Part shown: positions 2,707 to 51,198 of the stretch, one piece after another
Position numbering within the stretch: position 1 is the first letter of the stretch
How the letters are laid out: every line of letters begins with the position of its first letter
Assembly: GCF_041248615.1 (NCBI RefSeq)
Contig: NZ_CP158426.1
DNA from: Escherichia coli
GTDB lineage: Bacteria; Pseudomonadota; Gammaproteobacteria; Enterobacterales; Enterobacteriaceae
Reading direction: 5' to 3' (one strand)
DNA: 64,000 nucleotides
Position numbers and translations under genes: made by a program
The notes under the pieces: generated by a model
The model's input: only the letters and a program-made list of their open reading frames with translations
What the model was told of the DNA's origin: nothing
Database searches by the model: none

Positions 2707-2753
2707 TGGTGGCCCCTGCTGGACTTGAACCAGCGACCAAGCGATTATGAGTC
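2707..2753 (-). repeat. attR: displaced 47-nt 3' fragment of tRNA-Ile2 (acceptor/T-arm/anticodon-stem 3' side)
   Basis: Matches 43/47 nt of the intact tRNA at 51123..51169; homology stops abruptly at 2753. Confidence 0.85.
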
Positions 2754-2879
2754 ATGAGGCAAGTTCGTTCTATATTGTTTTTGTTTGTTCGTGATTGCTT
2801 TATTAGTTGTTTGTAATCAATAAATTATGTGATTTTCCCTGTCTCCGCTTGGTTCCGTTTTTTCTTCATTGTACGATCG

Positions 2880-2903
2880 TTACCTGACCCATTACCTGAC
2901 CCA
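2880..2903. repeat. 24-bp direct repeat TTACCTGACCCATTACCTGACCCA (left copy), 47 bp upstream of int
   Basis: Identical 24-mer at 51043..51066; contains an internal tandem of ACCTGACCCA. Confidence 0.8.
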
Positions 2904-2949
2904 AAATCACGAGTTATTCTGATTGTTACTGGTTTAGAAAAGAGGTTCT

Positions 2950-4266
2950 ATGGCCGTCAATCTTACTGAAACAGCCATCCGAGCATTGAAAGCAAAAAAG
3001 ACATCGTTCTATGTCTGGAGCAACAGCTCTCAACGTGGCACTGGACGACTTGGTGTCAAAGTTCAGCCTTCTGGCAGCAAGATTTTCTATTTCCGCTATT
3101 ACGTGGAAAAAGGGAAAAAAGAAAGATTCATTCAATTGGGTATATGGCCTGAGATGAAACTGGCCACAGCGAATGAACTGGCAAAAAAGTATGGTGCCTG
3201 GCTCATTGAAGGAAAGGCTCCCCAGGCAGAACTGGAACGACAACAGTTTGCAGAACAGCAGCGGATACAACTCCATCAATCACAGGGCTCATTTGAAGCA
3301 TTGATTCATGGTTATGTTAACAAAATGAAAATTGATAATAAGAGGACATGGCAGGATGTTCTGAAACGCCTTGAAAATGAATGCTATACAGTGATCCCCC
3401 GTGAAACTAAAGCTAAAGATGTGACTTCCGGACAGATTAAACATATCCTGGCCGGGATCATTCAGCGCGGTGCTGTGGTTCACTCTAACCGGATCCGTTC
3501 TTACCTGATGGCTGCATTTAACTATGGACTGAAAGCAGATAACGATCCGATGAACACAAGTGTAGGGATTACTTTTGGGCTGGAGGCAAATCCGGTGTCA
3601 GTGATACCGAAACAGTCATCTGCTGAAAAAGTCGGTGATACCTGGCTGACACTTGAAGAGTTGCGTTTTCTAATGGAACATTTTGCTGAAGCAACCAACG
3701 TTGGATTATTGATGCAACATTTGATCCGATTCTGTATCTATACCGGAGGGCAACGTCCTTTCGAAATGATCGCCAGTCAGTGGTGTGATGTTGATTTTCA
3801 ACAAAAAACGCTGCTGGTGACTGCTGATGTCTCTAAAAATAAACGAGAGCATTTGATACCGTTGACTGAATCAGCATTACAGGAATTATCCTGTGTGCAG
3901 GAGTTAACAAAAGAAAAATCCAGCCCTTACATTTTTCCACTTTCGACTAATGGTAAGCGTCCGGTTCGTACGGACAGTCTGGCTCGCGCTATCATGTATT
4001 TCCGGGCTTTTAATCCTGACTTTAAAATTTTTACAGCACGTGACTTACGTCGGACCTGTAAAACGTTAATGGGAGAAGCTGGGATCAGTAAGGAAATCCG
4101 CGATCGTATTCAAAATCATGCGTTGAACGATGTCAGTTCAAAACATTATGATCGATACGATTATTTGCCAGAAAAACGCAGAGCACTTGAGATCTGGGAG
4201 GACCGGGTTAATAACTATCAACAGCAAACAGGCAATAATGTTGTCAATCTGTTTGGCAGAAGGTGA
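2950..4266 (+). CDS. P4-like tyrosine integrase (N-terminal arm-binding domain plus C-terminal catalytic domain)
   Basis: 438-aa ORF; N-terminus MAVNLTETAIRALKAKK...; C-terminal R...HxxR...Y catalytic residues (DLRRT, NHAL, SKHYDRYDY). Confidence 0.9.
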   Translation: MAVNLTETAIRALKAKKTSFYVWSNSSQRGTGRLGVKVQPSGSKIFYFRYYVEKGKKERFIQLGIWPEMKLATANELAKKYGAWLIEGKAPQAELERQQFAEQQRIQLHQSQGSFEALIHGYVNKMKIDNKRTWQDVLKRLENECYTVIPRETKAKDVTSGQIKHILAGIIQRGAVVHSNRIRSYLMAAFNYGLKADNDPMNTSVGITFGLEANPVSVIPKQSSAEKVGDTWLTLEELRFLMEHFAEATNVGLLMQHLIRFCIYTGGQRPFEMIASQWCDVDFQQKTLLVTADVSKNKREHLIPLTESALQELSCVQELTKEKSSPYIFPLSTNGKRPVRTDSLARAIMYFRAFNPDFKIFTARDLRRTCKTLMGEAGISKEIRDRIQNHALNDVSSKHYDRYDYLPEKRRALEIWEDRVNNYQQQTGNNVVNLFGRR

Positions 4267-4395
4267 GGGAGTTCCTGGTTGCTGTACGAATTGTGTACAA
4301 TTGATGGGTATTGTTGATGCACTTGGTTCTTGTATTGTTTACTATAATTATTGAGGTAAATTTTCGTGCCGGTATTACTCAGAGGGGATTCAAAA

Positions 4396-4992
4396 ATGGC
4401 TGTAATTCCAATGTCTTACTCCCCTGCTACTGTAGCTCGTCGTTTTTCGATACTGGATGGAGTAACTATTCAGGGCGTGCTTTACCAGATCATCTGGGAT
4501 CCAAAGACTCCGTTTGCTGCGGTAATCGAAGCTGCACCTTCTGTTATTGATGGTGATGTTCGCCATAAGGTTGTTGCCACTCTGGAGCTTCAGCGTCGTC
4601 CCCGGCTTGAAGGCGTGTTTGTCCAGAAATTCTGGGAAGAACAGGATGTTGCTCAGATTGAAGGGATTGTTGTCGATGGCGCTGTACGTGATGTTGGTCT
4701 TGCAACGTTTGTTTATGAAACGATAGTCACAAAAGCGGGCGTTGTACTATTAAGTGATAACGAGCAATATGAAGGAGGTAAAGCTCTCTGGCAGCATATT
4801 GCGCGTCGTTCAACGAATCTGAAGGTGTTTATTTTAGATACTGATTCCGCACGGTATTACCCGTTTGATGGCGAACGGATCAGTTATGACGGGAAAAGCA
4901 TCCCGGAATCAGAAATCTGGAGTGAACATCCTGAGCGAAACAGACACGCTGTCGTTCTTGTGGCTGAATCTGTTAATGGTAAAGCCGCATAA
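4396..4992 (+). CDS. Hypothetical protein (198 aa from ATG 4396; ORF open from 4366)
   Basis: Long ORF with plausible RBS (gagggg) upstream of ATG 4396; no recognisable motif. Confidence 0.45.
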   Translation: MAVIPMSYSPATVARRFSILDGVTIQGVLYQIIWDPKTPFAAVIEAAPSVIDGDVRHKVVATLELQRRPRLEGVFVQKFWEEQDVAQIEGIVVDGAVRDVGLATFVYETIVTKAGVVLLSDNEQYEGGKALWQHIARRSTNLKVFILDTDSARYYPFDGERISYDGKSIPESEIWSEHPERNRHAVVLVAESVNGKAA

Positions 4993-5074
4993 TTTGCTGA
5001 GTGTCTCATTTTTTGAGATCTTGCTGGAAAGTCTCCTTTGGGGATAGCGAACTGCTATCCCCTTTCTCAGTGAG

Positions 5075-6679
5075 TTACTGTTCGACCAGACATTTTCCCC
5101 ATAAAGGTCGTATCGAGTATCTATCTTCGCTATATGGATTTATTTTATTTTTTTCCCTCTGTGCTATCAGCAACGTGTCGATCTCATCCTTAATAATGTG
5201 TTGAACTGCTTGACGGTAACGGTTAAGCGAAGTGTCACTGATATCTTGTGGAAGTTGTAGACTGCCATCTGCCTTGACAAGTTCATTCACACCATCTTTA
5301 ATTCTGCGTCCCTGACCATCAGGTATACCTTCATTCAGATCATAGCCTTTTAGTCCTGCAAGACGAATATTCACGTCAATCTTTTCTGTACGTATCTTTT
5401 TGTTACTTACCAACAGAATTTTATTGGCGTTATACCATTTTTCAAATATTTCCAGTTGTTTCATGATGTTTGTGAAGTTATTCAGTTCGCTCCTGAATTC
5501 AATAGATTTTCTAATTTTACGCTCTTTTGCATCAATGTTTATTCCTGGATAATTTATTTCCATTTTTAACGGTTCTGTGTATGCCTGTTGCAGGCAATCA
5601 GCAAGATTCATTGCTGCATCCTGCAGGGTATTGGTATAAATCAGTTTCAGAAGTTCATCACGCTGTATAGTGATTTGACAATAGTCTTTTTCCCATGCGG
5701 TGGTGTTTTCAATCGTGTCACTTTCATCGGAAATAATTGTTGTGAACTTCCAGGTGTAACGAATAAAATCATTTCCTTTAAAATATTGCACTAATTTATT
5801 TAACCATTCATATATTTCCAGAGCATAAAGTTTAACGTATCCATCATATATTATCTTTGTTGCATTTTTGTTGGCTAGCGAAAACATTTTGTCCACGAAT
5901 TCTGTACGCCCGATTGTTAGCAATTGTTTTCTAAGTTTACTCACATCGTTAGTATCTGGTTTCTCACAATTCCAGGGACTTTTGTATTCATTTTCAAAAG
6001 GAGAAAGCCATTCAGGAATCTCTGTTTCTGAGTGATAGCAGTTGTTAATAGCCAAACCAAGGGTTCTGGCAAGTATCGCTGATTCATCAATTTGATGGTA
6101 TCGGTTCAGTTGTTCCAGTAATTCTTTAGTACATGAGTGCGCAACAGAAAGATCCTGATGGCAATATCCTTGTCGAACCAGAGCGGGAAGTGGTGAGCAA
6201 TGAGCTTTACAATCTGTCAGAATATTGAACAAATCGTTTCTGACGAATTCTTCCATCTCAGGTGTTTTCCAGCCACCACTATTTTGGCCGACAAATTTTG
6301 CTGTTGGTTCCCTGTTCATATCTCCCCAGGTTTTCAGGCTGACGAGTCTGTTATCAAAACCATTGTATAAATGGCACATAACCTGAAAAGCAGCATACAG
6401 ATCTTTAGATAGTGGATTATCGGTCTCACTTATGGAGTAGTTCTCTCTGTTTTTCTCTAAAATACTTTGGAGTTTTGTGTTAGCGCGTAATGCCGAGAGA
6501 ATCCGATGTTGTTCATCAAACCAAGGACGATATTCTGGATCCAGATACAATCTGCGTGCTTTGAAAATGAGTAGAAGCAACTGTTCGGAAACAGCTTCAT
6601 GTATGTGGGGAAACGGCATGGAGGTGCCGGATAAAACACGATAGTACGGGTGGTTTGTTTTTACCTTTTTAGTTACCAT
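5075..6679 (-). CDS. Hypothetical 534-aa protein, AT-rich orphan; candidate accessory or defence gene
   Basis: 1.6-kb uninterrupted ORF in strongly AT-rich DNA, where chance ORFs this long are improbable; no Walker A, HTH or nuclease motif identified by eye. Confidence 0.55.
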   Translation of the reverse strand: MVTKKVKTNHPYYRVLSGTSMPFPHIHEAVSEQLLLLIFKARRLYLDPEYRPWFDEQHRILSALRANTKLQSILEKNRENYSISETDNPLSKDLYAAFQVMCHLYNGFDNRLVSLKTWGDMNREPTAKFVGQNSGGWKTPEMEEFVRNDLFNILTDCKAHCSPLPALVRQGYCHQDLSVAHSCTKELLEQLNRYHQIDESAILARTLGLAINNCYHSETEIPEWLSPFENEYKSPWNCEKPDTNDVSKLRKQLLTIGRTEFVDKMFSLANKNATKIIYDGYVKLYALEIYEWLNKLVQYFKGNDFIRYTWKFTTIISDESDTIENTTAWEKDYCQITIQRDELLKLIYTNTLQDAAMNLADCLQQAYTEPLKMEINYPGINIDAKERKIRKSIEFRSELNNFTNIMKQLEIFEKWYNANKILLVSNKKIRTEKIDVNIRLAGLKGYDLNEGIPDGQGRRIKDGVNELVKADGSLQLPQDISDTSLNRYRQAVQHIIKDEIDTLLIAQREKNKINPYSEDRYSIRPLWGKCLVEQ

Positions 6680-7458
6680 AATGTTAAATTCTTCCGTCTA
6701 TTGCATAGCTGTTTCCAGTAGAGAAACTTGATACAGTCCTTTGTCAGGACATTGATACAGAGTTAACAGCCTCTACGAAATGGGAATCAGTTATGCAGTG
6801 GCATTATACGATGCTGAATCTAATACGATATCCTTAGCGTTTATTCCTGATTTTTTTACGAGCATTCCCTTTTGTTGCATATTGCTCAGGACGCAAATGA
6901 TTTTACGGTTATAGCCCTCTACAGTCACGTCACTTTCATCTGAAAATATGTATCGTTTTCATTCAATTATTATCTTTTGTCTGCACTTTAGCTTTAGAAA
7001 GTTGGCAAAAATCAACTCCCTCTTACAAGTTCTATTATCGCCAGAAGATAATTTTGTGAACTTCGTCACGTTTTCAAACTAATGTTGTGGGGGCTTTTCT
7101 GGGGAGAATTTTTGGTCACTACCCCTCCTCTTGATATCATAGATTATAACAAGATTTTTTTTGTTTTTGTCTGCATAAAATAACCTACGAATATTGTGAT
7201 TTTGATTTTTATTTTGTATACCAAAAAGCATTGTTTAAGTTATTTTTATATTGTGACTTTCTTTGTTGTTATTGTGTTATTAGAAGTCAGTTAATTAAAT
7301 CATTTCTCGCAATTTGATTTCTTGGTTGTGCAAATGTATTGTTTTGCTCGTGAGTTGCTGGTGCTGTTCAACAGCATACCACTACAGATAGATGTAGTGA
7401 TTTGAGCAGCTCACATGCATATACAATCTGAAAATCATGAATATATAAGGAGAGCAAT

Positions 7459-7686
7459 ATGTGGAAGCCGTTAAGAGATGAGAACCGTTTATCAATTTTG
7501 AAGATCTATGGATACACCTGTGACAGACTGGTACGAGAAAAGGAACGCCAGAAAATTACGTCTATTTCTCGTTCACAAGCCTGGAAACTGGAACGTGAAG
7601 GAAAATTCCCGCCACGTAAAACTATTGGAAAGAAATCCTGTGGGTGGTTATTAAGTGATCTATTGTGGTGGATTAGTCAGTATTAA
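7459..7686 (+). CDS. AlpA-family phage regulatory/excisionase-like DNA-binding protein
   Basis: 75 aa; AGGAG RBS; HTH plus EREGKFPPRK..G.....W...L..W motif typical of AlpA/Phage_AlpA. Confidence 0.7.
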   Translation: MWKPLRDENRLSILKIYGYTCDRLVREKERQKITSISRSQAWKLEREGKFPPRKTIGKKSCGWLLSDLLWWISQY

Positions 7687-7748: not shown

Positions 7749-8495
7749 ATGATGAAACGTGTCTCTTTCTCTCTTGCAGAAACATATGAAGCTGATGTAA
7801 TTAAAAAGTATCAGCATTTAAAAAAATGCTCATTTTCAGCAGCGATTAAAGAGTGTTTAAAGCTAGGGGCTCCTGTTTTAAACAGGATAAATGAAAATAT
7901 TGCTGCTATAACTGATATAGAGGATAAGCTACGTCAGTTTTTTAATGAGGAACCATTTGTGCAACGGACAAAGCCTGAAATAACAAAAGGAGAGTTTTTT
8001 CATAGCATTTATAAATCGCATATCAAATATGAATATGATGTTCTCGATAGAAAGATATTTCCTCATGAAAGCACCAGAAATGCTATGGGAGTTGCAGAGA
8101 AAAAGGGAATTAAAGAGAATGCGACCTTAATGCTGGAATATTATAAAGTTGAGAAGGCAATTTGTATTTACACGAACAGAAAAGTTTCCCATACCCTGAA
8201 TCGTGCAGGAGGGTTTTATAAAACCATTCTGATTAAAACCAGTGTTTTTGGGGATTATTTTTTTGACTTTTGCAATTCAGTTTGCCTGCCGATAGATGAG
8301 TTGATTGAGTATGGTACGAAAGAAACAGTGAGGCGACATCAGATTCGTAGTACAGGATTTTGTACTTTTCATATTCCGATTTTTTATATCAATAATAAGG
8401 CTGTAATAGTGCCTGTTCTGAGAACAGAGGAAGTTTCACAAAGTTCCAGAACAGGTGGAGATGTTATTATTATTAACCCATTTGAAGATGAATGA
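7749..8495 (+). CDS. Hypothetical 248-aa protein (possible N-terminal ribbon-helix-helix-like segment)
   Basis: ORF with AAGGAG RBS in AT-rich DNA; N-terminus KRVSFSLAETYEADVIKKY resembles RHH regulators; remainder unassigned. Confidence 0.5.
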   Translation: MMKRVSFSLAETYEADVIKKYQHLKKCSFSAAIKECLKLGAPVLNRINENIAAITDIEDKLRQFFNEEPFVQRTKPEITKGEFFHSIYKSHIKYEYDVLDRKIFPHESTRNAMGVAEKKGIKENATLMLEYYKVEKAICIYTNRKVSHTLNRAGGFYKTILIKTSVFGDYFFDFCNSVCLPIDELIEYGTKETVRRHQIRSTGFCTFHIPIFYINNKAVIVPVLRTEEVSQSSRTGGDVIIINPFEDE

Positions 8496-8716
8496 TTATG
8501 GCCCGCGTAGATTTATTCATAACCCAGAAATCGTGGTGTAAATGATGAACAGAAACCGCTTTCTGAGGTTAAAGAGAGCAATCATTACCCGGGAGTGGCC
8601 AACTCTTTTATCGAGTACTTTTCCGATGTATCTGGAGAGCCTCCCTTAGAAAAGAGTAATGCGACTCAGGAAAAAACAGGTTCAATAATTAATTCATGAC
8701 ACCAGTTTGAGGCATT

Positions 8717-9277
8717 ATGGCGAGTTTTGCATACATAGACTCTGAAAAATGGTCAAAACTTAATCGCTTAAAATCCATGATTCAGAGATATTTTAAAGAA
8801 CCACTATTGCAGTTAACAGGCGAATTGGGTCGCCCGGATTATACTCTGGCAGACAGAAAACGGTTAGTTCGACTCCTGACGCAGGATATGCAAAGGGGTG
8901 ATATTCTGATTACTAAATCGTTAACTTGTTTTGGTAATACGCCGGAAAAAATACAGGAGGTTTTATCTTTAAGTATCAGACAAGGTATTAATATTTGCTT
9001 TTTTACGTCATCAGAGTTGCCGGATGGTGATGATATTCCTGTGGTACTCACCGGGATGATTTTACCTACAGATATTAGAGGAAAAATTCCCGACATCAGT
9101 ATCCGGAAAATTAAAAGAAAACCAGGAAGGAAAGAAGGGAGTATTCATAGTAAAAATATCAGACAGTTGAAATTGCAGGGGTTCAGTCAGTCACAAACAG
9201 CCAGAAAATTAAGCATCAGTTTATCCACTGTAAAAAGACACTGGGATAAAGGTATTGTTGATCTAACTGCAGAGTAA
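8717..9277 (+). CDS. Small serine-recombinase-like protein (resolvase/invertase size and layout, divergent)
   Basis: 186 aa; N-terminal YIDSE segment, central GDILITKSLTCFGNTPEKIQEVLSLSIRQGINICF resembling resolvase core, C-terminal HTH (SQSQTARKLSISLSTVKRHW). Confidence 0.4.
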   Translation: MASFAYIDSEKWSKLNRLKSMIQRYFKEPLLQLTGELGRPDYTLADRKRLVRLLTQDMQRGDILITKSLTCFGNTPEKIQEVLSLSIRQGINICFFTSSELPDGDDIPVVLTGMILPTDIRGKIPDISIRKIKRKPGRKEGSIHSKNIRQLKLQGFSQSQTARKLSISLSTVKRHWDKGIVDLTAE

Positions 9278-9658
9278 CATTTTATAGTCCTTGTAGCTAT
9301 TGGCAATGGAGTTATAAATACATGTGCGTTGGATAGGTAATATATATTATATCTGTGATGTATAGTATATGTGTAATGATGGATATGATGTACTAATAGA
9401 GCTAATGGTATTCTGATACCAAATAATTAGTTGTGTGTAGATCATAACTCTGTTTAATGTTTTAGAACGTTCTAATGTAACTGTGTAACATCATCCTGTT
9501 CTCTAATGTAACAATAGGCAGTAGCGTTTTTCTTAATTGACGCCCAGAGGGTTATATATCCCTCTGGGAACTACTGATACGAATATTAATATCTGCTTCT
9601 GTTGTGTATTGGGTAGGTTAACTATTAGCTTATCTCTGAAAGCAAAAGGAATATTAAC

Positions 9659-10273
9659 ATGATTACGATTGAAACTCTTTACGGTGAATGTCATGAGGCT
9701 CACGGGTTAAAAATAAGAAACCAGGTGAATAACCTCTTCCAGAAACATCCCAGAATAACGGCAATACGGGTGGATCTCCATTATCCTCCCGTGATTGACA
9801 ACGGGGATACCATTACCTGTTTTCCTAACCTGAGTCCCGGAGAGATATCTCGTTTCCGTAACTCGCTGAATGCGAAAATTAATGCAGATCAACACCGTAA
9901 AAAACAACAAGGCAAACGCACCTACGCAACGTCGGTTTGTATTATCTGGGCGAAAGAATATACGCAGTCCTTTAAATGTCATTATCACGTCTGCCTTTTT
10001 TTTAACAAAGACGCCTATTACCACCTGGGAGACTATGAGCGCTCTGACACCCTGAGAGGGTTAATTACCGGAGCCTGGTACAGTGCCTTAGGGTTAGAAC
10101 TGGAAGATCACCAGGGACTAGTTCATTTCCCTGCTAATGGACGTTACATCCTGGATATTAACGATCCTGATTTCCCTGAGCAATATCAGCGCTTATTGGC
10201 ACGTCTGGATTATCTGACGAAGCTCGACACTAAAGCATCAGGCCAGCGTAACTTTGGCTACAGCGGTTTTTGA
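9659..10273 (+). CDS. HUH-motif protein (rolling-circle Rep-like / YagK-YfjJ inovirus-Gp2-like family)
   Basis: 204 aa; HUH-type motif CHYHVCLFF and downstream Y-x-x-K (DYLTK); family assignment from memory only. Confidence 0.45.
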   Translation: MITIETLYGECHEAHGLKIRNQVNNLFQKHPRITAIRVDLHYPPVIDNGDTITCFPNLSPGEISRFRNSLNAKINADQHRKKQQGKRTYATSVCIIWAKEYTQSFKCHYHVCLFFNKDAYYHLGDYERSDTLRGLITGAWYSALGLELEDHQGLVHFPANGRYILDINDPDFPEQYQRLLARLDYLTKLDTKASGQRNFGYSGF

Positions 10274-10300
10274 CCTATTGTAACTGTAAGGTGATTTATT

Positions 10301-10867
10301 ATGTATACAGAATCAAACGTTAAGCTTTCCTGTAACGCCCTCTGGCAAAAGTATGTCCTTGCAACTCTGTATCGGGCTGCAGCTACACATCCTAAAATTA
10401 AATTATTACAATTTAAATTAATACCTTGCCCAGGTATGAACAAGGCAATTCCCTCTCTGATGGCTGATTTTACTGGTGAACTGCATAGACTAATTTCTGA
10501 ATATTTGCAGTGCAAGCGACGTAAAGATAAATCTGTTGAGCCCGCCCCTTTATATTATCTCTGGAGTAGGGAAGCTGTGGCTAACGATACCACTCCTTAT
10601 CTTATGGTACTGCTACTTAATAACGATGTCTGGTGTAAGAGTCGTGAGGTGGTGGCTCTCAGAAATCTGATTGAGCAGGCGTGGGGAAAAGTATTGGGTG
10701 AAGATAACTCCATTACACATCTGGTTGTGTATCCTGAAGTGCTGTCGTTGGTATTTGATGCAGCTAACACATACAACGCTGAGCCTGGTGTACTGGAACA
10801 GACGGCCCAGGCTTACATTGAATCGCATGGTGCCATTGAACGTCATCTTGGGTGTAGTGACTTTTAA
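10301..10867 (+). CDS. Hypothetical 188-aa protein, probably co-transcribed with the HUH gene
   Basis: ORF 27 bp downstream of the previous gene with RBS taaggtga. Confidence 0.45.
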   Translation: MYTESNVKLSCNALWQKYVLATLYRAAATHPKIKLLQFKLIPCPGMNKAIPSLMADFTGELHRLISEYLQCKRRKDKSVEPAPLYYLWSREAVANDTTPYLMVLLLNNDVWCKSREVVALRNLIEQAWGKVLGEDNSITHLVVYPEVLSLVFDAANTYNAEPGVLEQTAQAYIESHGAIERHLGCSDF

Positions 10868-12151: not shown

Positions 12152-12485
12152 TATATCAATTAATCATTAGTTTAAAAGCTTGTTCAACTGCATACATCAT
12201 TAGCGTTTAAGCCAGTGAACAGGAAGTTTACTGGCTTAATTACAGTAATATAGTGTATCGCTATGCTCACTGAGTCTTAGATCTCCACCGTCGGTCTAAT
12301 ATTCGCACTCCTGCTAACAACCGGTAATCAAATCGTCCTCCGGTATTGAAAGTTAATACACAAATCAGGATGATGGAGGCTCATACTGGTACAGCGCGAC
12401 CACTTATGCAGGCGTCTCTGTCAGGTTTGTTGCCCGGATCACCCGCATCAGGGACAGGGCTGTTCAGTTATCCGCAGGAGAAAAT

Positions 12486-13496: not shown

Positions 13497-13518
13497 TTTT
13501 TAATCCCGCTCACAAATT

Positions 13519-34436: not shown

Positions 34437-35632
<1,196 letters not shown>

Positions 35633-41617: not shown

Positions 41618-41880
41618 TTTTAATCCATTTTCCTGGTTTGGACCTGAATCATTGAGGGCAATTCTACAGCAATCTTGTGGTTCAGGCAGCCCCGGAGTAA
41701 GTCGGTGTACATTGTGAGATACCTGGGGTATTCACGACAAGGAGGAGGAACGGAATATTGCCTTTCCTTTGCAGTGCACCAGGTGCATTCTAAATAATTT
41801 CAGACAGATATTATCTCCGTGAATCCCCCGCCACCTTTCCGGTGCGCGGGGTTTTGTCTTTTTTCACCGGGAATACATGT

Positions 41881-42753: not shown

Positions 42754-42871
42754 ACACTCTGCCAGGGGAAATGCCTGATTACATTGCGTTAACCAACTGA
42801 AAACATGACACAAACACCTCATACCCACCTCTTTCTCTTGCGTGACTGCCTTGCTGTTAATAGAATAAAAC

Positions 42872-42907
42872 GATCGATAAAACAGGTATCGATCGTTGTA
42901 ATCGATC
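42872..42907. promoter_or_regulatory. Three GATC sites in the agn43 regulatory region (Dam/OxyR phase-variation switch)
   Basis: GATC at 42872, 42891 and 42904 within aacGATCgataaaacaggtatcGATCgttgtaatcGATCgtt, about 220 bp upstream of the antigen 43 start. Confidence 0.6.
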
Positions 42908-43124
42908 GTTTATGGTGGTTAATGGTCTGCGAAAAGGCAGCTGAATCTCTTCATCATGCAGAACGGAATTGCACACAACGGACTGATACTTCTCTGGCGG
43001 ATGAGAGAGGGGAAGCATTTATGTCCGGGAAAAACCACTTTATCTGACCATGCTGTTTTGTACCTGCCGGTATCCACATTTGTGGGTACCGGCTTTTTTA
43101 TTCACCCTCTGTAAGGAAAAGCTG

Positions 43125-45971
43125 ATGAAACGACATCTGAACACCAGCTACAGGCTGGTATGGAATCACATTACGGGCACCCTGGTGGTGGCTTCCGAAC
43201 TGGCCCGCTCACGGGGAAAACGCGCCGGTGTGGCGGTTGCGCTGTCTCTTGCTGCTGTCACGCCAGTCCCGGCACTGGCTGCTGACACGGTTGTAGAGGC
43301 GGGAGAAACCGTGAACGGCGGAACACTGACAAATCATGACAACCAGATTGTCTTCGGTACGACCAACGGAATGACCATCAGTACCGGGCTGGAGTATGGG
43401 ACGGATAACGAGGCCAATACCGGCGGACAATGGATACAAAATGGCGGTATCGCCAACAACACTACTGTCACCGGTGGTGGTCTTCAGAGAGTGAATGCCG
43501 GAGGAAGCGTTTCAGACACGGTTATCAGTGCCGGAGGCGGACAGAGCCTTCAGGGGCAGGCAGTGAACACCACTCTGAACGGCGGTGAGCAGTGGGTACA
43601 TGAAGGCGGGATTGCAACGGGTACCGTCATTAATGAGAAGGGCTGGCAGGCCGTCAAATCCGGCGCAATGGCAACCGACACGGTTGTGAATACCGGCGCG
43701 GAAGGGGGACCGGATGCAGAAAATGGTGATACCGGGCAGTTTGTTCGCGGAAATGCCGTACGTACCACTATCAATGAAAATGGTCGTCAGATTGTGGCTG
43801 CTGAAGGAACAGCAAATACCACTGTGGTTTATGCCGGCGGCGACCAGACTGTACATGGTCACGCACTGGATACTACGCTGAATGGGGGGTACCAGTATGT
43901 GCACAACGGCGGTACGGCGTCTGACACTGTTGTAAACAGTGACGGCTGGCAGATTATCAAGGAAGGTGGTCTGGCGGATTTCACCACCGTTAACCAGAAA
44001 GGCAAACTGCAGGTGAACGCCGGTGGTACCGCCACACATGTCACCCTGAAACAGGGTGGAGCACTGGTCACCAGTACTGCGGCAACGGTTCTTGGCAGCA
44101 ACCGTCTGGGCAATTTCACGGTGGAAAACGGTAAGGCTGACGGCGTTGTTCTGGAGTCCGGCGGTCGCCTGGATGTACTGGAAGGCCATTCAGCGCAGAA
44201 AACACGGGTGGATGACGGCGGAACCCTGGCAGTGTCTGCCGGTGGTAAGGCAACAGGTGTCACCATGACATCCGGTGGTGCCCTGATTGCAGACAGTGGT
44301 GCCACTGTTGAGGGGACCAATGCCAGCGGTAAGTTCAGTATTGATGGCATATCCGGTCAGGCCAGCGGCCTGCTGCTGGAAAATGGCGGCAGCTTTACGG
44401 TTAATGCCGGGGGACAGGCCAGCAACACCACTGTCGGACATCGTGGAACACTGATGCTGGCTGCCGGGGGAAGTCTGAGTGGCAGAACACAGCTCAGTAA
44501 AGGCGCCAGCATGGTACTGAATGGTGATGTGGTCAGTACCGGCGATATTGTTAACGCAGGGGAGATTTACTTTGACAATCAGACAACACCGGATGCCGCG
44601 CTGAGCCGTGCTGTTGCAAAAGGCGACTCCCCGGTAACGTTCCATAAACTGACCACCAGTAACCTCACCGGTCAGGGGGGCACCATCAATATGCGTGTTC
44701 GCCTTGATGGCAGCAATGCCTCTGACCAGCTGGTGATTAATGGTGGCCAGGCAACCGGCAAAACCTGGCTTGCGTTCACAAATGTCGGAAACAGTAACCT
44801 CGGGGTGGCAACCTCCGGACAGGGTATCCGGGTTGTGGATGCACAGAATGGTGCCACCACAGAAGAAGGTGCGTTTGCCCTGAGTCGCCCGCTTCAGGCC
44901 GGTGCCTTTAACTACACCCTGAACCGTGACAGCGATGAAGACTGGTACCTGCGCAGTGAAAATGCTTATCGTGCTGAAGTCCCCCTGTATGCCTCCATGC
45001 TGACACAGGCAATGGACTATGACCGGATTCTGGCAGGCTCCCGCAGCCATCAGACCGGTGTAAACGGTGAAAATAACAGCGTCCGTCTCAGCATTCAGGG
45101 CGGTCATCTCGGTCACGATAACAACGGCGGTATTGCCCGTGGGGCCACGCCGGAAAGCAGCGGCAGCTATGGCTTCGTCCGTCTGGAGAGTGACCTGCTG
45201 AGAACAGAGGTTGCCGGTATGTCTGTGACCGCAGGGGTATATGGTGCTGCTGGCCATTCTTCCGTTGATGTTAAGGATGATGACGGCTCCCGCGCCGGCA
45301 CGGTCCGGGATGATGCCGGCAGCCTGGGCGGATATCTGAATCTGGTACACACGTCCTCCGGCCTGTGGGCTGACATTGTGGCACAGGGAACCCGCCACAG
45401 CATGAAAGCGTCATCGGACAATAACGACTTCCGCGCCCGGGGCTGGGGCTGGCTGGGCTCACTGGAAACCGGTCTGCCCTTCAGTATCACTGACAACCTG
45501 ATGCTGGAACCACAACTGCAGTATACCTGGCAGGGACTCTCCCTGGATGACGGCCAGGATAACGCCGGTTATGTGAAGTTCGGGCATGGCAGTGCACAAC
45601 ATGTGCGTGCCGGTTTCCGTCTGGGCAGCCACAACGATATGAGCTTTGGTGAAGGCACCTCATCCCGTGACACCCTGCGCGACAGTGCAAAACACAGTGT
45701 GAGTGAACTGCCGGTAAACTGGTGGGTACAGCCTTCTGTTATCCGCACCTTCAGCTCCCGGGGTGACATGAGCATGGGTACAGCTGAAGCCGGCAGTAAC
45801 ATGACGTTCTCACCGTCACAGAATGGCACGTCACTGGACCTGCAGGCCGGACTGGAAGCCCGTGTCCGGGAAAATATCACTCTGGGCGTTCAGGCCGGTT
45901 ATGCCCACAGTGTCAGCGGCAACAGCTCTGAAGGCTATAACGGTCAGGCCACGCTGAATGTGACTTTCTGA
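43125..45971 (+). CDS. flu: Antigen 43 self-associating autotransporter adhesin
   Basis: 948-aa product from ATG 43125; extended signal peptide MKRHLNTSYRLVWNHITGTLVVASELARS..., repetitive beta-helix passenger, C-terminal beta-barrel ending ...TLNVTF. Confidence 0.85.
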   Translation: MKRHLNTSYRLVWNHITGTLVVASELARSRGKRAGVAVALSLAAVTPVPALAADTVVEAGETVNGGTLTNHDNQIVFGTTNGMTISTGLEYGTDNEANTGGQWIQNGGIANNTTVTGGGLQRVNAGGSVSDTVISAGGGQSLQGQAVNTTLNGGEQWVHEGGIATGTVINEKGWQAVKSGAMATDTVVNTGAEGGPDAENGDTGQFVRGNAVRTTINENGRQIVAAEGTANTTVVYAGGDQTVHGHALDTTLNGGYQYVHNGGTASDTVVNSDGWQIIKEGGLADFTTVNQKGKLQVNAGGTATHVTLKQGGALVTSTAATVLGSNRLGNFTVENGKADGVVLESGGRLDVLEGHSAQKTRVDDGGTLAVSAGGKATGVTMTSGGALIADSGATVEGTNASGKFSIDGISGQASGLLLENGGSFTVNAGGQASNTTVGHRGTLMLAAGGSLSGRTQLSKGASMVLNGDVVSTGDIVNAGEIYFDNQTTPDAALSRAVAKGDSPVTFHKLTTSNLTGQGGTINMRVRLDGSNASDQLVINGGQATGKTWLAFTNVGNSNLGVATSGQGIRVVDAQNGATTEEGAFALSRPLQAGAFNYTLNRDSDEDWYLRSENAYRAEVPLYASMLTQAMDYDRILAGSRSHQTGVNGENNSVRLSIQGGHLGHDNNGGIARGATPESSGSYGFVRLESDLLRTEVAGMSVTAGVYGAAGHSSVDVKDDDGSRAGTVRDDAGSLGGYLNLVHTSSGLWADIVAQGTRHSMKASSDNNDFRARGWGWLGSLETGLPFSITDNLMLEPQLQYTWQGLSLDDGQDNAGYVKFGHGSAQHVRAGFRLGSHNDMSFGEGTSSRDTLRDSAKHSVSELPVNWWVQPSVIRTFSSRGDMSMGTAEAGSNMTFSPSQNGTSLDLQAGLEARVRENITLGVQAGYAHSVSGNSSEGYNGQATLNVTF

Positions 45972-45994
45972 TAATCAGGTCACTCCCCTTCAGG

Positions 45995-46021
45995 CCCCGG
46001 TCATAATGACCGGGGCTTTTT
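45995..46021 (+). terminator. Rho-independent terminator after flu
   Basis: ccccggtcat a atgaccgggg followed by cttttt. Confidence 0.55.
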
Positions 46022-46297
46022 ACTTTCAGGGAGCAACAGATATGCCGGGTTGTACATCACGTTTATTGCCGAAGGCTCTTTTGCTGCCAAATGGCATCTG
46101 AATCGTTCACAATTTGGCCGGTTATTGCCCGATCCCGATGGGGTTATTGGGTGATCTCCTTCCATAAAAATACGCAGCTCGCCAGTGAAGGGCTTCTCAG
46201 ACAATAAACGTCATTCATTTCGTCCATCAGGCCGCGTCTTCTCCGGGAGACGCGGCTTTTTCATTTACACCGCTAACTCATTCATAAGGAATAAATC

Positions 46298-47116
46298 ATG
46301 CGATTAGCCAGTCGTTTTGGTTATGCGAACCAGATACGCCGTGACCGCCCCTTAACCCGTGAAGAACTGATGCAGGTCGTCCCCAGCGTATTCGGGGAAG
46401 AGAAACACACATCCAGAAGCGAGAACTATACCTGGATCCCCACCATCACCGTGCTGGAAAGCCTGCAGCGGGAAGGCTTCCAGCCATTCTTCGCCTGCCA
46501 GACCCGCGTGCGCGACCCGGGCCGCCGGGGATACACCAAACACATGCTGCGTCTGCGCCGTGACGGGGAGATAAACGGACAACATGTCCCTGAAATCATC
46601 CTGCTGAACTCCCATGACGGTACCTCCAGCTACCAGATGCTGCCGGGTTACTTCAGGTTCGTCTGCCAGAACGGATGCGTCTGTGGTCAGTCTCTGGGGG
46701 AAGTGCGTGTTCCACACCGGGGAGACGTAGTGGAGAAAGTTATCGAAGGGGCTTACGAGGTGGTGGGGGTTTTTGACCGGATTGAGGAGAAGCGTGATGC
46801 CATGCAGTCGCTGGTCCTGCCGCCACCGGCACGCCAGGCGCTGGCACAGGCGGCACTGACTTACCGTTATGGTGACGAACATCAGCCCGTCACCACTGCT
46901 GACATTCTGACACCGCGACGCCGGGAGGATTACGGTAAGGACCTGTGGAGTGCTTATCAGACCATCCAGGAGAATATGCTGAAAGGCGGGATTTCCGGTC
47001 GCAGTGCCAGAGGAAAACGTATCCATACCCGTGCCATTCACAGCATCGACACGGACATTAAGCTCAATCGCGCATTGTGGGTGATGGCAGAAACACTGCT
47101 GAAGAGTATGCGCTGA
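46298..47116 (+). CDS. DUF932-type protein (YfjQ/YafZ-like)
   Basis: 272 aa; family and position typical of CP4-type prophage ends (assignment from memory). Confidence 0.55.
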   Translation: MRLASRFGYANQIRRDRPLTREELMQVVPSVFGEEKHTSRSENYTWIPTITVLESLQREGFQPFFACQTRVRDPGRRGYTKHMLRLRRDGEINGQHVPEIILLNSHDGTSSYQMLPGYFRFVCQNGCVCGQSLGEVRVPHRGDVVEKVIEGAYEVVGVFDRIEEKRDAMQSLVLPPPARQALAQAALTYRYGDEHQPVTTADILTPRRREDYGKDLWSAYQTIQENMLKGGISGRSARGKRIHTRAIHSIDTDIKLNRALWVMAETLLKSMR

Positions 47117-47206
47117 TGCCTTTTCCCTGAAAGCGCAGTTCTGACTCATGTCCGTCCCTGCCCCGCGACTTCTTCCCTTCATTTACTTTTTATAAGGAAT
47201 AATCTC

Positions 47207-47692
47207 ATGACAACCGTTTTGCATAATTCCACCACATCTTCTGTTTCCGTAACCGCTGTATCAGAGAATAACCCGACTCAACTGGTTGCCACCCTCGTCC
47301 CTGATGAACAGCGCATCAGCTTCTGGCCGCAGCATTTTGGCCTCATTCCACAGTGGGTGACCCTGGAGCCCCGTGTCTTCGGCTGGATGGACCGTCTGTG
47401 CGAAGACTACTGCGGTGGTATCTGGAATCTGTACACCCTGAACAACGGCGGGGCATTTATGGCCCCCGAACCGGATGACGATGATGACGAAACATGGGTA
47501 CTGTTCAGTGCCATGAACGGTAACCGCGCTGAAATGAGCCCGGAAGCTGCCGGTATTGCCGCCTGTCTGATGACGTACAGCCATCATGCCTGTCGTACGG
47601 AGTGTTATGCCATGACGGTCCATTATTACCGTCTGCGGGATTACGCCCTGCAGCATCCGGAATGCAGCGCCATTATGCGTATCATCGACTGA
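47207..47692 (+). CDS. Putative antirestriction protein (YfjX/YafX-like)
   Basis: 161 aa; acidic stretch EPDDDDDE; conserved position upstream of radC-like gene. Confidence 0.5.
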   Translation: MTTVLHNSTTSSVSVTAVSENNPTQLVATLVPDEQRISFWPQHFGLIPQWVTLEPRVFGWMDRLCEDYCGGIWNLYTLNNGGAFMAPEPDDDDDETWVLFSAMNGNRAEMSPEAAGIAACLMTYSHHACRTECYAMTVHYYRLRDYALQHPECSAIMRIID

Positions 47693-48184
47693 ATGGAGAG
47701 AAGCATAATGCAACAGCTTTCCTTTCTGCCCGGAGAGATGACGCCTGGCGAGCGCAGCCTCATTCAGCGGGCCCTGAAAACCCTGGACCGCCATCTTCAT
47801 GAACCCGGCGTGGCCTTCACCTCCACGCATGCGGCACGGGAGTGGCTGATTCTGAACATGGCGGGACTGGAGCGGGAAGAGTTCCGGGTGCTGTATCTGA
47901 ACAACCAGAATCAGCTGATTGCCGATGAAACCCTCTTCACCGGCACCATCAACCGCACGGAAGTCCATCCCCGTGAAGTGATTAAACGCGCCCTGTATCA
48001 CAATGCCGCTGCTGTGGTGCTGGCACACAATCACCCGTCCGGTGAAGTCACACCCAGCAAGGCAGACCGCCTTATCACGGAACGTCTGGTACAGGCACTG
48101 GCCCTGGTGGATATCCGGGTACCGGACCATCTGATAGTTGGTGGCAACCAGGTTTTCTCCTTTGCGGAACACGGTCTGCTTTAA
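47693..48184 (+). CDS. RadC-like JAB/MPN-domain protein (YeeS/YkfG/YfjY-like)
   Basis: JAB motif HNHPSGEVTPSKAD. Confidence 0.75.
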   Translation: MERSIMQQLSFLPGEMTPGERSLIQRALKTLDRHLHEPGVAFTSTHAAREWLILNMAGLEREEFRVLYLNNQNQLIADETLFTGTINRTEVHPREVIKRALYHNAAAVVLAHNHPSGEVTPSKADRLITERLVQALALVDIRVPDHLIVGGNQVFSFAEHGLL

Positions 48185-48252
48185 CCCGTCACCGTTACAA
48201 CCACATCACACCTGTTTTCACTTTTATCTTCTGTCTTCAGAGGTATCCCACT

Positions 48253-48474
48253 ATGAAAATCATCACCCGTGGCGAAGCCATGCGTATTCATCAACAACAT
48301 CCTGCATCCCGTCTTTTCCCGTTCTGTACCGGCAAATACCGCTGGCACGGCAGCACTGAAGCGTATACCGGTCGTGAAGTGCAGGATATTCCCGGTGTGC
48401 TGGCCGTGTTTGCTGAACGCCGTAAGGACAGTTTTGGCCCATATGTCCGGTTGATGAGCGTCACCCTGAACTGA
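48253..48474 (+). CDS. DUF987-type small protein (YeeT/YkfH-like)
   Basis: 73 aa; conserved position between radC-like and antitoxin genes. Confidence 0.5.
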   Translation: MKIITRGEAMRIHQQHPASRLFPFCTGKYRWHGSTEAYTGREVQDIPGVLAVFAERRKDSFGPYVRLMSVTLN

Positions 48475-48553
48475 GTCTGGAAGGGCATTCAGATGAGCAG
48501 AATTATCGCCACCACCGGACCATTCTTAACCGATTTTCTGTGAGGACTTTATC

Positions 48554-48922
48554 GTGTCAGACACACTGCCCGGGACAACGCATCCCGACAACAACAACGA
48601 CCGCCCCTGGTGGGGGCTGCCCTGCACCGTGACGCCCTGTTTCGGGGCACGTCTGGTGCAGGAGGGTAACCGGTTGCATTACCTTACAGACCGCGCCGGT
48701 ATCAGAGGGCGGTTCAGCGATGCGGATGCGAACCATCTGGACCAGGCCTTTCCGCTGCTGATGAAACAACTGGAACTCATGCTCACCAGCAGTGAACTGA
48801 ATCCCCACCGTCAGAATACCGTCACGCTGTATGTTAAAGGGCTGACCTGCCATGCGGACACCCTCGGCAGCTGTGGTTACGTTTATCTGGCTGTTTATCC
48901 GACGCCCGAAATGAAAAATTAA
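48554..48922 (+). CDS. cbeA: CbeA/YeeU-family type IV antitoxin
   Basis: 122 aa; gene pair arrangement with downstream CbtA-like toxin. Confidence 0.7.
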
Positions 48923-49011
48923 CTCTCCAGAATAGCCTTCTGCTACGGCCTGGTGCTTTCACCACGCCACTTTTCCATTTTTCATCTCTGCATATCAGGA
49001 AAATCTTCAGT

Positions 49012-49395
49012 ATGAAAACATTACCTGTATTACCCGGGCAGGCGGCCAGTTCACGCCCGTCTCCGGTTGAAATCTGGCAGACACTGCTCACCCGACTGCT
49101 GGACCAGCACTACGGCCTTACGCTGAATGACACACCGTTCGCCGATGAACGTGTGATTGAGCAGCATATTGAAGCTGGCATTTCACTGTGTGATGCGGTG
49201 AACTTTCTCGTTGAAAAATACGCACTGGTACGTACCGACCAGCCGGGATTCAGCGCCTGTACCCGCTCTCAGTTAATAAACAGTATTGATATTCTCCGGG
49301 CTCGCCGGGCAACCGGCCTGATGACCCGCGACAATTACAGAACGGTAAATAACATTACCCTGGGTAAGCATCAGGAGTCGAAACGATGCAACTGA
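49012..49395 (+). CDS. cbtA: CbtA/YeeV-family toxin (cytoskeleton-binding toxin)
   Basis: 127 aa [43 protein letters not shown]... Confidence 0.7.
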
Positions 49396-49874
49396 CCCTG
49401 ACACTGGAAGCCGACAGCGTTAACGTACAGGCACTGAATATGGGGCGAATTGTCGTTGACATTGATGGTGTTAATCTCGCTGAACTGATTAACATGATCT
49501 GCGATAACGGCTACTCCCTTCGTGTTGTTGATGAATCTGACCGGACCTCAGCAGACTGCACGCCACCATTTGCTGCCCTTACCGGCATACGCTGCAGTAC
49601 CGCACATATCACGGAAACGGACAACACCTGGCTGTACTCGCTGTCGCATCAGACGAATGACACCGGCGAATCAGAATGGATTCATTTTACAGGCAGAGGG
49701 TATCTGTTACGTACCGATGCTTTGTCGTATCCGGTGCTACACCTTAAACGTCTGGGCCTGTCAAAAACCTTCCGCCGTCTGGTTGTCACTCTCATCCGGC
49801 GTTATGGCGTCAGTCTTATTCATCTGGATGCCAGCGCCGGGTGTCTGCCGGATTTACCCACTTTCGACTGGTAA
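49386..49874 (+). CDS. YeeW-like hypothetical protein, overlapping the toxin gene 3' end
   Basis: 162-aa ORF starting 10 bp before the cbtA stop. Confidence 0.4.
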
Positions 49875-49885
49875 CCAGAAACAAC

Positions 49886-50083
49886 ATGAAATCATTAACC
49901 ACGGAAACAGCGCTGGATATTCTGATTGCGTGGCTGCAGGACAATATCGACTGTGAATCCGGAATTATCTTTGACAACGATGAGGATAAAACGGATTCGA
50001 CAGCCCTGTTGTCCTGTATTGAACAGGCCAGGGAGGATATCCGTACCCTGCGCCAACTGCAGCTTCAGCCCCCGAACCGGTGA
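49886..50083 (+). CDS. Small hypothetical protein (DUF957-like); ORF open from 49841
   Basis: ATG at 49886 gives MKSLTTETALDILIAWLQDNID... Confidence 0.4.
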   Translation: MKSLTTETALDILIAWLQDNIDCESGIIFDNDEDKTDSTALLSCIEQAREDIRTLRQLQLQPPNR

Positions 50084-50179
50084 GTTTCACTCATCATCTC
50101 ACTCACCAGACTTCATTCCACTGACGCCAGCCTGAACAGGGCTGGCGTTTTCATTTATCTGCAAAAAGGAATATCGATT

Positions 50180-51025
50180 ATGTCTGATATCACAGCCTCC
50201 CGTCCGGAAGTAGTCAACGGGCATACGGACGTTATCTGCTCAACCAGTATCCGCCACATTCTGGCTGTACGAAAAAGTACACTGCTGCAAATCAACACAC
50301 TTATCCGGCAACTGGCTGAAATCTCAGCAATGACAGAAAGTATTGGCGGTAAAACCGCACTGGACTGGGCGATGAAACAGGATTTTCGCTGTGGCTGCTG
50401 GCTCATGGAGAAACCTGAAACGGCAATGAAAGCCATCACACACAATCTCGATCGTGAAATCTGGCGTGACTTGATGCAACGTTCCGGGATGCTTTCCTTA
50501 ATGGATGCACAGGCCCGTGAGACATGGTACCGGTCACTGGAGTACGATAATTTTCCGGAAATCAGCGAAGCGAACATCCTGAGCACATTTGAACAACTGC
50601 ACCAGAATAAGGATGAGGTGTTTGAGCGAGGGGTGATCAACGTCTTCAGAGGGCTGAACTGGAATTACAAAACCAATTGCCCCTGTAAATTTGGCAGTAA
50701 AATTATCGTCAACAATCTGGTGAGATGGGACCGGTGGGGATTTCATCTTATCACCGGACAACAGGCTGACCGACTCGCCGATCTGGAAAGAATGTTGCAC
50801 CTGTTCAGCGGTAAACCAATCCCCGACAATCGGGAAAACATCACTATTCGTCTGGATGAGCACATTCAGTCTGTTCAGGGTAAAGAGAGCTATGAAGATG
50901 AGATGTTCAGCATCAGATACTTTAAGAAGGGCTCCGCGCATATCACATTCAGAAAACCAGAACTGGTTGATCGGCTAAATGACATCATTGCAAAGCGTTA
51001 TCCGGGACAATTATCAGCCATCTGA
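50180..51025 (+). CDS. Hypothetical 281-aa protein at the tRNA-proximal end of the island
   Basis: ORF only; last gene before the reconstituted tRNA. Confidence 0.5.
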   Translation: MSDITASRPEVVNGHTDVICSTSIRHILAVRKSTLLQINTLIRQLAEISAMTESIGGKTALDWAMKQDFRCGCWLMEKPETAMKAITHNLDREIWRDLMQRSGMLSLMDAQARETWYRSLEYDNFPEISEANILSTFEQLHQNKDEVFERGVINVFRGLNWNYKTNCPCKFGSKIIVNNLVRWDRWGFHLITGQQADRLADLERMLHLFSGKPIPDNRENITIRLDEHIQSVQGKESYEDEMFSIRYFKKGSAHITFRKPELVDRLNDIIAKRYPGQLSAI

Positions 51026-51042
51026 GTCAGATGGAAAAAAGC

Positions 51043-51066
51043 TTACCTGACCCATTACCTGACCCA
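51043..51066. repeat. 24-bp direct repeat TTACCTGACCCATTACCTGACCCA (right copy), 57 bp from the tRNA 3' end
   Basis: Identical to 2880..2903. Confidence 0.8.
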
Positions 51067-51070
51067 ATTC

Positions 51071-51113
51071 AAAGGAAAAAGAAAAAGGGTTAGCTGGTTT
51101 ATTAGCTAACCCT
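51071..51113 (-). terminator. Island-borne rho-independent terminator directly downstream of the reconstituted tRNA
   Basis: Minus strand: stem agctaaccct / agggttagct followed by tttttcttttt. Confidence 0.55.
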
Positions 51114-51122
51114 TTGTTGTGT

Positions 51123-51198
51123 ATGGTGGCCCCTGTTGGGTTTGAACCAACGACCAAGCGATTATGAGTCGCCTGCTCTAACCACTGAGCTAAGGGGC
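51123..51198 (-). tRNA. ileX: tRNA-Ile2 (anticodon CAU, lysidine-modified), attL side of the island
   Basis: 76-nt cloverleaf GGCCCCTTAGCTCAGTGGTTAGAGCAGGCGACTCATAATCGCTTGGTCGTTGGTTCAAACCCAACAGGGGCCACCA with encoded CCA; K-12 position between mug and yqjH. Confidence 0.9.

Follow-up and report, generated by a model that had tools for sequence, protein, structure and literature searches.

The 64,000-nucleotide (nt) stretch of Escherichia coli contig NZ_CP158426.1 (assembly GCF_041248615.1) that we analysed, hereafter the window, carries a 48,417-bp segment between the core genes nfeF (also called yqjH, 1889-2653) and mug (51324-51830). This segment is very probably a single CP4-type integrative genomic island that was put into the tRNA gene ileX by its own tyrosine integrase. 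It is a known kind of element, an ordinary member of a widespread family, and its wider importance is small. The family amounts to one integration platform with many cargos: raffinose, lactate, and restriction-modification (R-M) genes here; urease, Klebsiella glycerol/propanediol genes, and mcr-1 elsewhere. The details of its integration help the annotation of island boundaries in E. coli and the tracking of clinically interesting cargo.

The boundaries of the island are two tRNA-derived repeats, whose spacing gives its length. ARAGORN, Rfam (tRNA, 72 bits), and the RefSeq annotation (tRNA-Ile) agree on one tRNA in the window, at 51124-51199 on the minus strand, with anticodon CAT. This is the rebuilt, intact ileX, which contains the core of the left attachment site (attL). 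The core of the right attachment site (attR) is a 47-nt copy of tRNA positions 30-76 at 2707-2753 (minus strand), oriented as in the tRNA and matching 51124-51170 at 43 of 47 positions. Weaker similarity extends about 48 nt beyond the tRNA 3' end into the terminator hairpin (2659-2706 versus 51076-51123). An initial annotation, made from the sequence alone, had proposed an insertion in ileX between yqjH and mug, delimited by an intact tRNA-Ile2 and a 47-nt partial copy of it. The insertion, the tRNA, and the partial copy at 2707-2753 all stand, but the coordinates given for the tRNA (51123-51198) were one base off.

We modelled the empty site by joining positions 2300-2753 of the window to 51171-51600 (884 nt), and counted as a match a single one covering at least 80% of this length. 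Of 5426 complete E. coli genomes, 4955 match the model without interruption, one of them (NZ_OW967178.1) with 100% identity. Accordingly, deletion of 2754-51170 restores the order nfeF-ileX-mug. In the two empty-site genomes that we aligned, the T-arm of ileX is exactly that of the 47-nt fragment (host type, GCTGG/CCAGC). Hence, the fragment is the 3' half of native ileX, displaced by the 48,417-bp insertion. This comparison with genomes lacking the insertion had been suggested by the initial annotation, which also raised the possibility that the fragment was part of a different element; the identity of the two T-arms contradicts the latter. An apparent resemblance of empty-site genomes to the tRNA-proximal end of the island, seen in the alignments, was traced to the partly similar terminator region. 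The junction of nfeF, fragment, and integrase gene is present in 359 of the E. coli genomes and that of the DUF4942 gene, tRNA, and mug in 345, while the first 25 kb of the window are common to only 113 and positions 25001-50000 to only 45. The locus also has the features by which Islander recognises islands (PMC4383910): an intact tRNA gene with a 3' fragment displaced downstream in the same orientation, a tyrosine integrase within the interval, a length inside 2-200 kb, and the existence of genomes whose target site is uninterrupted.

The four differences between the two tRNA copies locate the exchange. They are at tRNA positions 50, 59, 60, and 64, all of them 3' of a 20-nt block that is identical in both copies (2734-2753 and 51151-51170; tRNA positions 30-49, anticodon loop included). 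Positions 50 and 64 pair in the T-stem, where C-G of the host copy is replaced by U-A in the island copy, a compensatory change, and positions 59 and 60 belong to the T-loop. Rebuilt ileX consists of an island-derived part (51124-51150, with T-arm GTTGG/CCAAC), the common block (51151-51170), and a host part (51171-51199). It therefore holds the island-type bases and the displaced fragment the host-type ones, which places the exchange within the 20 identical bases. Judging from these sequences, strand exchange must have occurred inside tRNA positions 30-49. This defines the exact crossover interval in ileX for the island family and assigns it to the anticodon-loop ('A') class of sublocations (Williams 2002, as summarised in PMC4383910), which accounts for 2083 of the 3919 islands in the Islander database (PMC4383910).

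Before integration, the attachment site of the island (attP) would have carried a copy of tRNA positions 30-76 plus the terminator, and the island indeed has its own version of the hairpin that follows ileX (51084-51115). Exchange in the identity block around the anticodon loop would have moved the host 3' half 48 kb away, and the island copy, with its base-pair-compensated T-arm, would complete a functional ileX. E. coli AH04 and several other genera also have the island-type T-arm in their rebuilt tRNA. The displaced fragments show that this T-arm (GTTGG TTCAAAC CCAAC) is native to the ileX of Enterobacter sp. Bisph1, Escherichia sp. ESNIH1, Brenneria alni, and Kluyvera sichuanensis, which suggests that the tRNA copy in attP was captured in hosts of the Enterobacter/Kluyvera/Brenneria/ESNIH1 kind before E. 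coli. The small number of differences, four, could also be taken to mean that the 47-nt repeat arose by chance or by local duplication of the tRNA and has nothing to do with the intervening DNA. This is hardly credible, because the exact reconstruction of the empty site refutes it, the four differences separate host from island T-arm types systematically, and the chance expectation of a 47-nt match within 64 kb is negligible (about 1e-16 by our own estimate).

The integrase gene (2950-4266, plus strand) starts 196 nt from the partial tRNA copy. Its 438-amino-acid (aa) product matches phrog_1 of PHROG and the Pfam domains Arm-DNA-bind_3 (PF13356), Phage_int_M (PF22022), and Phage_integrase (PF00589). 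It thus has the N-terminal arm-DNA-binding domain and the catalytic domain of a heterobivalent tyrosine integrase. Both island ends contain a perfect 25-nt direct repeat, TTACCTGACCCATTACCTGACCCAA, at 2880-2904 and 51043-51067, and candidate arm-type sites are accordingly repeated on both sides of the attP core. Each copy comprises two tandem 12-mers, TTACCTGACCCA; the window has four copies of this 12-mer, where 0.27 would be expected by chance, all of them at the two ends of the island. The left pair (plus strand) ends 45 nt upstream of the integrase ATG, in the P' arm of the attachment site (2754-2949, plus strand), which is also the upstream region of the gene and, outside a conserved footprint at the repeats, varies from one island variant to another. 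The right pair lies in the P arm (51026-51123, plus strand), together with the island-borne copy of the ileX terminator hairpin.

This repeat is conserved among related islands of Enterobacterales and Vibrionaceae. In E. coli AH04, the integrase gene shows only 75% DNA identity and the arms are diverged, yet both ends keep the repeat and a few bases around it unchanged; in E. coli O157 Anguil, an O157:H7 strain, the repeat is invariant amid diverged flanks. Species-representative genomes contain 22 loci with an exact match to the 25-mer, which belong to Enterobacter, E. albertii, Siccibacter, Citrobacter, Kluyvera, Kosakonia, Brenneria, Phytobacter, Erwinia, Tenebrionibacter, Vibrio, and Salinivibrio. 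The island of Salinivibrio sharmensis whose integrase is 50% identical has another tandem 12-mer (TTGTTTGACTAA, two copies) at an equal distance upstream of the start codon. The repeat thus changes along with the integrase, a co-variation that is expected of arm-type binding sites, and the tandem TTACCTGACCCA repeat is likely to be the site bound by the arm-binding domain. The integrase gene itself is present in 459 of the 5426 E. coli genomes, on chromosomes only, and full-length orthologues (82-87% identity) are found in other genera.

A second gene probably takes part in recombination. At 7459-7686 (plus strand), it encodes a 75-aa AlpA-like helix-turn-helix protein (phrog_2790, 'excisionase and transcriptional regulator', E=3e-22), which has homologues in the related islands L009, L016, and L028 and is a probable excisionase, i.e., a recombination directionality factor. 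In the mechanism that we propose, the integrase would bind the core sites through its catalytic domain and the tandem repeats of both arms through its N-terminal domain, with the AlpA-like protein acting as the excision factor. The 12-mer offers a candidate arm-binding motif, and the system might serve for site-specific integration into ileX. The KplE1/CPS-53 module (Panis et al. 2010, PMC2951348) also has an integrase promoter region that overlaps an attachment-site arm with arm-type sites, with the difference that the overlap there is with attL beside intact argW and here with attR beside the displaced fragment. Purely by analogy, this likeness predicts that the integrase would repress its own gene from the attR-overlapping upstream region, and that the excision factor would be controlled separately.

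The integrase is at the end of the island distant from the intact tRNA. At the other end, the block running from the antirestriction gene through RadC/JAB, YeeU, and CbtA to the DUF4942 gene (47207-51025) abuts the intact tRNA, from which it ends 98 nt away. The initial annotation remarked on this distal integrase as unlike most tRNA-integrated elements. The remark is apt for K-12, where the integrase gene adjoins the intact gene in four of five tRNA- or tmRNA-linked elements (CP4-57, PR-Y, CPS-53, and DLP12), and a survey of 1014 genomes found that 1273 of 8368 integrase genes adjoin a tRNA gene, mostly in two orientations (PMC2951348). In the family studied here, the layout recurs in at least six other species. 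Among the 22 loci with the 25-mer, the nine on the integrase side have only a partial tRNA, and the six with a YeeU/CbtA or DUF4942 end have an intact tRNA(CAT). Genes of the DUF932-to-DUF4942 type adjoin the rebuilt tRNA in other species too. Both island ends were recovered in four species, on separate contigs or at separate loci of one contig, so that the distal integrase holds in the window, in E. coli AH04, where the same layout extends across a complete 56-kb island, and in at least four other species. As far as these sequences go, an integrase beside the displaced fragment and a RadC/CbtA end beside the rebuilt tRNA are therefore a fixed property of this integrase lineage and no anomaly.

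The simplest reading of the difference from K-12 is that the gene order from integrase to toxin-antitoxin is the same in all these islands, and that they differ in how the tRNA-derived core is oriented with respect to the integrase gene. The ileX island shares with CP4-57 (in ssrA) and P4-like islands an arm-binding tyrosine integrase, an AlpA-type factor, and this backbone order. In CP4-57, by contrast, recombination takes place at the very 3' terminus of ssrA, and intA comes immediately after the intact gene. With the core of attP inverted relative to the integrase gene, as compared with islands such as CP4-57, integration would leave this gene and its promoter-proximal arm beside the displaced fragment and the antirestriction/RadC/CbtA end beside the rebuilt tRNA. 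We also considered that a crossover in the anticodon loop would dictate a distal integrase. This is ruled out by DLP12 of K-12, which starts at position 33 of argU and yet has intD adjoining the intact gene.

The closest likeness among K-12 elements is with CP4-6, inserted in thrW, as the initial annotation had pointed out. Both islands target the part of the tRNA from the anticodon to the 3' end, with a repeat of 49 nt there and 47 nt in ileX. The genes that come after the intact tRNA are, in each island, those for toxin/antitoxin, RadC, antirestriction, DUF932, and GTPase proteins (in CP4-6, thrW and then the ykfI/yafW/ykfG side), and the integrase gene lies at the far end with its 5' end towards the displaced fragment, which for intF is a 49-nt piece of thrW. 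YagK/L/M-like genes lie near the integrase gene in both islands, the cargo is rich in insertion sequences (IS), and ten backbone proteins are homologous (28-83% identity). The islands differ in target tRNA, in cargo, and in the genes adjacent to the integrase gene (yagN in CP4-6, two open reading frames [ORFs] of 198 and 534 codons here). Moreover, IntF is only about 25% identical to the ileX integrase over the catalytic domain (pairwise E 1e-5). The layout was therefore not inherited together with a shared integrase.

Comparison with E. coli strain 165 (NZ_CP020509.1) provides information on how the island was acquired. The flanks of strain 165 are 97.2% (left) and 98.0% (right) identical to those of the window, whereas positions 2754-34300 of the island show only 14 changes (99.93-99.99% identity). 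On the left, the last difference in the flank is at 2680 and the first in the island at 2783. On the right, a single difference falls between 50000 and 51200, and a dense run of them begins at 51249. The density of single-nucleotide polymorphisms (SNPs) thus changes within about 100 nt of each attachment site. Such a switch is the signature of site-specific acquisition and not of exchange by flanking homology, and the sequences indicate horizontal transfer.

Related integrases are also found at ileX with quite different cargo. In O157 Anguil, an integrase that is 96% identical accompanies an island with urease, phosphoethanolamine transferase, and traT genes. The AH04 island carries a Klebsiella-type dha glycerol/1,3-propanediol regulon, and a variant in strain PN43 has ISApl1-mcr-1.1 between the R-M and GTPase genes (NZ_MG591698.1, 99000-148500). 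The latter sequence (354 kb) is labelled 'plasmid', which would have made this a plasmid-borne copy, but it contains dnaG, rpoD, and mug and is a chromosome fragment. The site can also hold more than one element. In Escherichia sp. ESNIH1, the tRNA-proximal end of the island adjoins a tRNA fragment that ends in ...TTATGAG, after which comes a P2/186-like prophage with genes for an integrase and for CI-like and CII-like proteins (L018 3524-8743). A junction of the same kind is found in Siccibacter, and at the ileX of Salinivibrio, the second island, with the 50%-identical integrase, follows the first.

Several observations weigh against reading the segment as a single island integrated by its own enzyme. 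The integrase scores 72.3 bits against NCBIfam PRK09692 (CP4-57-type), far under the cut-off of 434, i.e., it is related to this family and outside of it. The whole family, including the Salinivibrio relative, has an arginine at the first catalytic histidine position (ARDLRRT or PRDIRRT versus LHGLRRS in IntF, integrase residues ~363-369); the R, K, second R, second H, and Y of the R-K-H-R-H-Y set can be aligned, with positions set by alignment to IntF only. A consensus scan found no sigma-70 promoter between the attachment core and the integrase gene. In the RefSeq annotation, the island has no relaxase, type IV secretion, or phage structural gene. An attP-like junction, as expected of an excised circle or of tandem copies, was searched as two arm repeats 215-245 nt apart and had no match in metagenome or viral contigs, and the reconstructed 548-nt attP reached 80% coverage in none of the 5426 E. 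coli genomes, a result with which rare excision is still compatible. Finally, the part with the R-M, Ag43, and backbone genes (35600-51123) is only 97.6-98.4% identical to strain 165, with the middle part of hsdS unalignable. As the left two thirds are 99.9% identical, the island is a mosaic with at least two histories.

This last observation raises the possibility that two or more tandem ileX elements became fused by loss of an internal attachment site, in which case the integrase end and the RadC/CbtA end would have different origins. The tandem arrays of ESNIH1 and Salinivibrio give it a precedent, and Ag43/RadC/CbtA backbones are common to many other islands per genome. We consider such a fusion improbable: the two ends share the same perfect 25-nt arm repeat, the window has no third tRNA fragment, further arm repeat, or second integrase, and the pairing of the integrase with such a tRNA-proximal end is found again in AH04, E. 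albertii, Enterobacter, Siccibacter, ESNIH1, and CP4-6. The failure to recover a circular junction from E. coli genomes, metagenome contigs, or viral contigs, together with the many IS and the lack of annotated transfer genes, would fit another scenario, in which the island is a fixed, immobile remnant and its presence or absence results from vertical descent and homologous recombination of large fragments; K-12 relatives such as CP4-6 are indeed classed as cryptic. This seems less probable still. The integrase gene, the alpA-like gene, and both attachment sites are intact, an empty site with 100% identical flanks exists, and the same integrase is associated with other ileX cargo in O157 Anguil, AH04, and PN43. 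In addition, the SNP switch relative to strain 165 is close to the attachment sites and not in the flanking core genes. We thus retain a single island, integrated by its own integrase, as the best account of the segment.

Without transfer genes of its own, such an island must spread with outside help. It lacks the annotated relaxase and type IV secretion genes of integrative conjugative or mobilizable elements. It also lacks the hallmarks of a P4 satellite phage: the alpha primase-helicase, sid, psu, delta, and epsilon genes are not annotated, and the integrase-proximal ORFs have no such PHROG matches. Some relatives carry YfjI or primase-domain genes. The island may still excise today. By analogy with what was proposed for other E. 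coli islands (bioRxiv 10.64898/2026.01.13.699239), the island may move as a relaxase-less 'hitcher' with an origin of transfer (oriT).

The genes adjacent to the integrase gene form a variable slot (4396-6679, GC content 35-40%), which is the only part of the island with the potential to become something new. Here, it contains a 198-aa ORF (plus strand, 4396-4992) and a 534-aa ORF (minus strand, 5075-6679). Neither has a match in NCBIfam, PADLOC, Pfam, or the PDB, and the first matches only phrog_7522, a family of unknown function. The structure of the 534-aa protein is modelled with confidence and has no neighbour among solved structures, and a homologue of it occupies the accessory ('moron') slot between tail genes S and V of a Klebsiella P2-like prophage. 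In P2, the S-V interval is the site of the non-essential fun(Z) genes. In relatives of the island, the slot between the integrase gene and the alpA-like gene is occupied by PDC-S04 genes (Fic-like, a PADLOC candidate) in Enterobacter, Kosakonia, and a metagenome bin, and by a ZorB (Zorya) gene in ESNIH1. The orphan fold and the moron-slot homologue are the reasons why the 534-aa protein could be a phage-exclusion determinant. We put forward only tentatively, as a rather doubtful idea, that the ileX family is a widespread platform (Enterobacterales, Vibrionaceae) whose integrase-adjacent slot is a hotspot of anti-phage defence and that this ORF is perhaps a new single-gene determinant of this type. 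Between the 534-aa ORF and the alpA-like gene, 780 nt (6680-7458) have no annotated genes.

The cargo is a mosaic of modules separated by IS elements, a description given in the initial annotation that agrees with the gene annotation, the comparisons, and the GC content, which ranges from 35% beside the integrase gene to 59% in the sugar and lactate modules. It would have been assembled through IS activity and recombination. The sugar module is a raffinose/sucrose (raf/scr) cluster (12486-22188, plus strand) encoding a regulator, alpha-galactosidase, MFS permease, GH32 invertase, IIA-Glc-like protein, fructokinase-like kinase, and porin. The region 12400-22300 (9.9 kb) is 99.8-100% identical to copies on E. 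coli and Salmonella plasmids, which, at the sequence level, shows recent exchange of the module between island and plasmid. The lactate module (27191-33792) encodes an L-lactate permease, a D-lactate dehydrogenase, and LutABC. The two other modules are the type I R-M genes and the segment with Ag43 and backbone genes (41881-51025). Islands 'downstream of ileX' have been reported in Shiga toxin-producing E. coli (PMC9144400, PMC9729726, PMC5539235, PMC7545054), including the TRI-2 tellurite-resistance island and LAA variants. They share the insertion site and differ in cargo from the island in the window, with its raffinose/sucrose, lactate, and type I R-M genes. These papers describe 12-bp direct repeats but neither the 47-nt fragment nor the crossover interval nor the arm repeats, and our literature search found no paper on the raffinose/lactate version.

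From the integrase gene onwards, the backbone has the CP4-type order: AlpA-type factor, YagK/YfjJ-type genes, GTPase, DUF932, antirestriction, RadC, and YeeU/CbtA. Its integrase-proximal part (7749-10867, plus strand) encodes YagM-like, YagL-like, YagK/inovirus-Gp2-like, and YagK/YfjJ-domain proteins, with 31%, 36%, 57%, and 28% identity, respectively, to K-12 CP4-6 in tblastn searches. The tRNA-proximal part (46298-51025, plus strand) comprises DUF932, antirestriction, RadC/JAB, DUF987, YeeU antitoxin, CbtA toxin, DUF5983, DUF957, and DUF4942 genes; its DUF932-to-CbtA proteins are 61-83% identical to YafZ, YafX, YkfG, YkfH, YafW, and YkfI of K-12. The remaining annotated features lie between these two parts. 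An IS3-family transposase gene (11074-12060, minus strand) bounds the sugar module. IS remnants at 22425-26761 comprise a piece of IS1414 (22425-23222) and an IS3-family element (23272-24011 and 26273-26761) that is interrupted by a group II intron, with Rfam matches to ALIL (23553-23669) and Intron_gpII (26196-26282). The ltrA gene of the intron (24684-26192) is intact; the same gene has an internal stop in strain 165. A gntP-family permease fragment (33842-34255) and ISKpn26 (34505-35485) precede the type I hsdR-hsdS-hsdM genes (35633-41617, minus strand). These are followed by the gene of a YeeP/YkfA-like GTPase (41881-42753, plus strand; 49% identical to K-12 YkfA) and by that of an Ag43 autotransporter (43125-45971, plus strand). 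Between the two, Rfam identifies an IS102/isrC-like RNA (42870-43106; RF00124, 72 bits), at the position where CP4-44 of K-12 has isrC upstream of flu.

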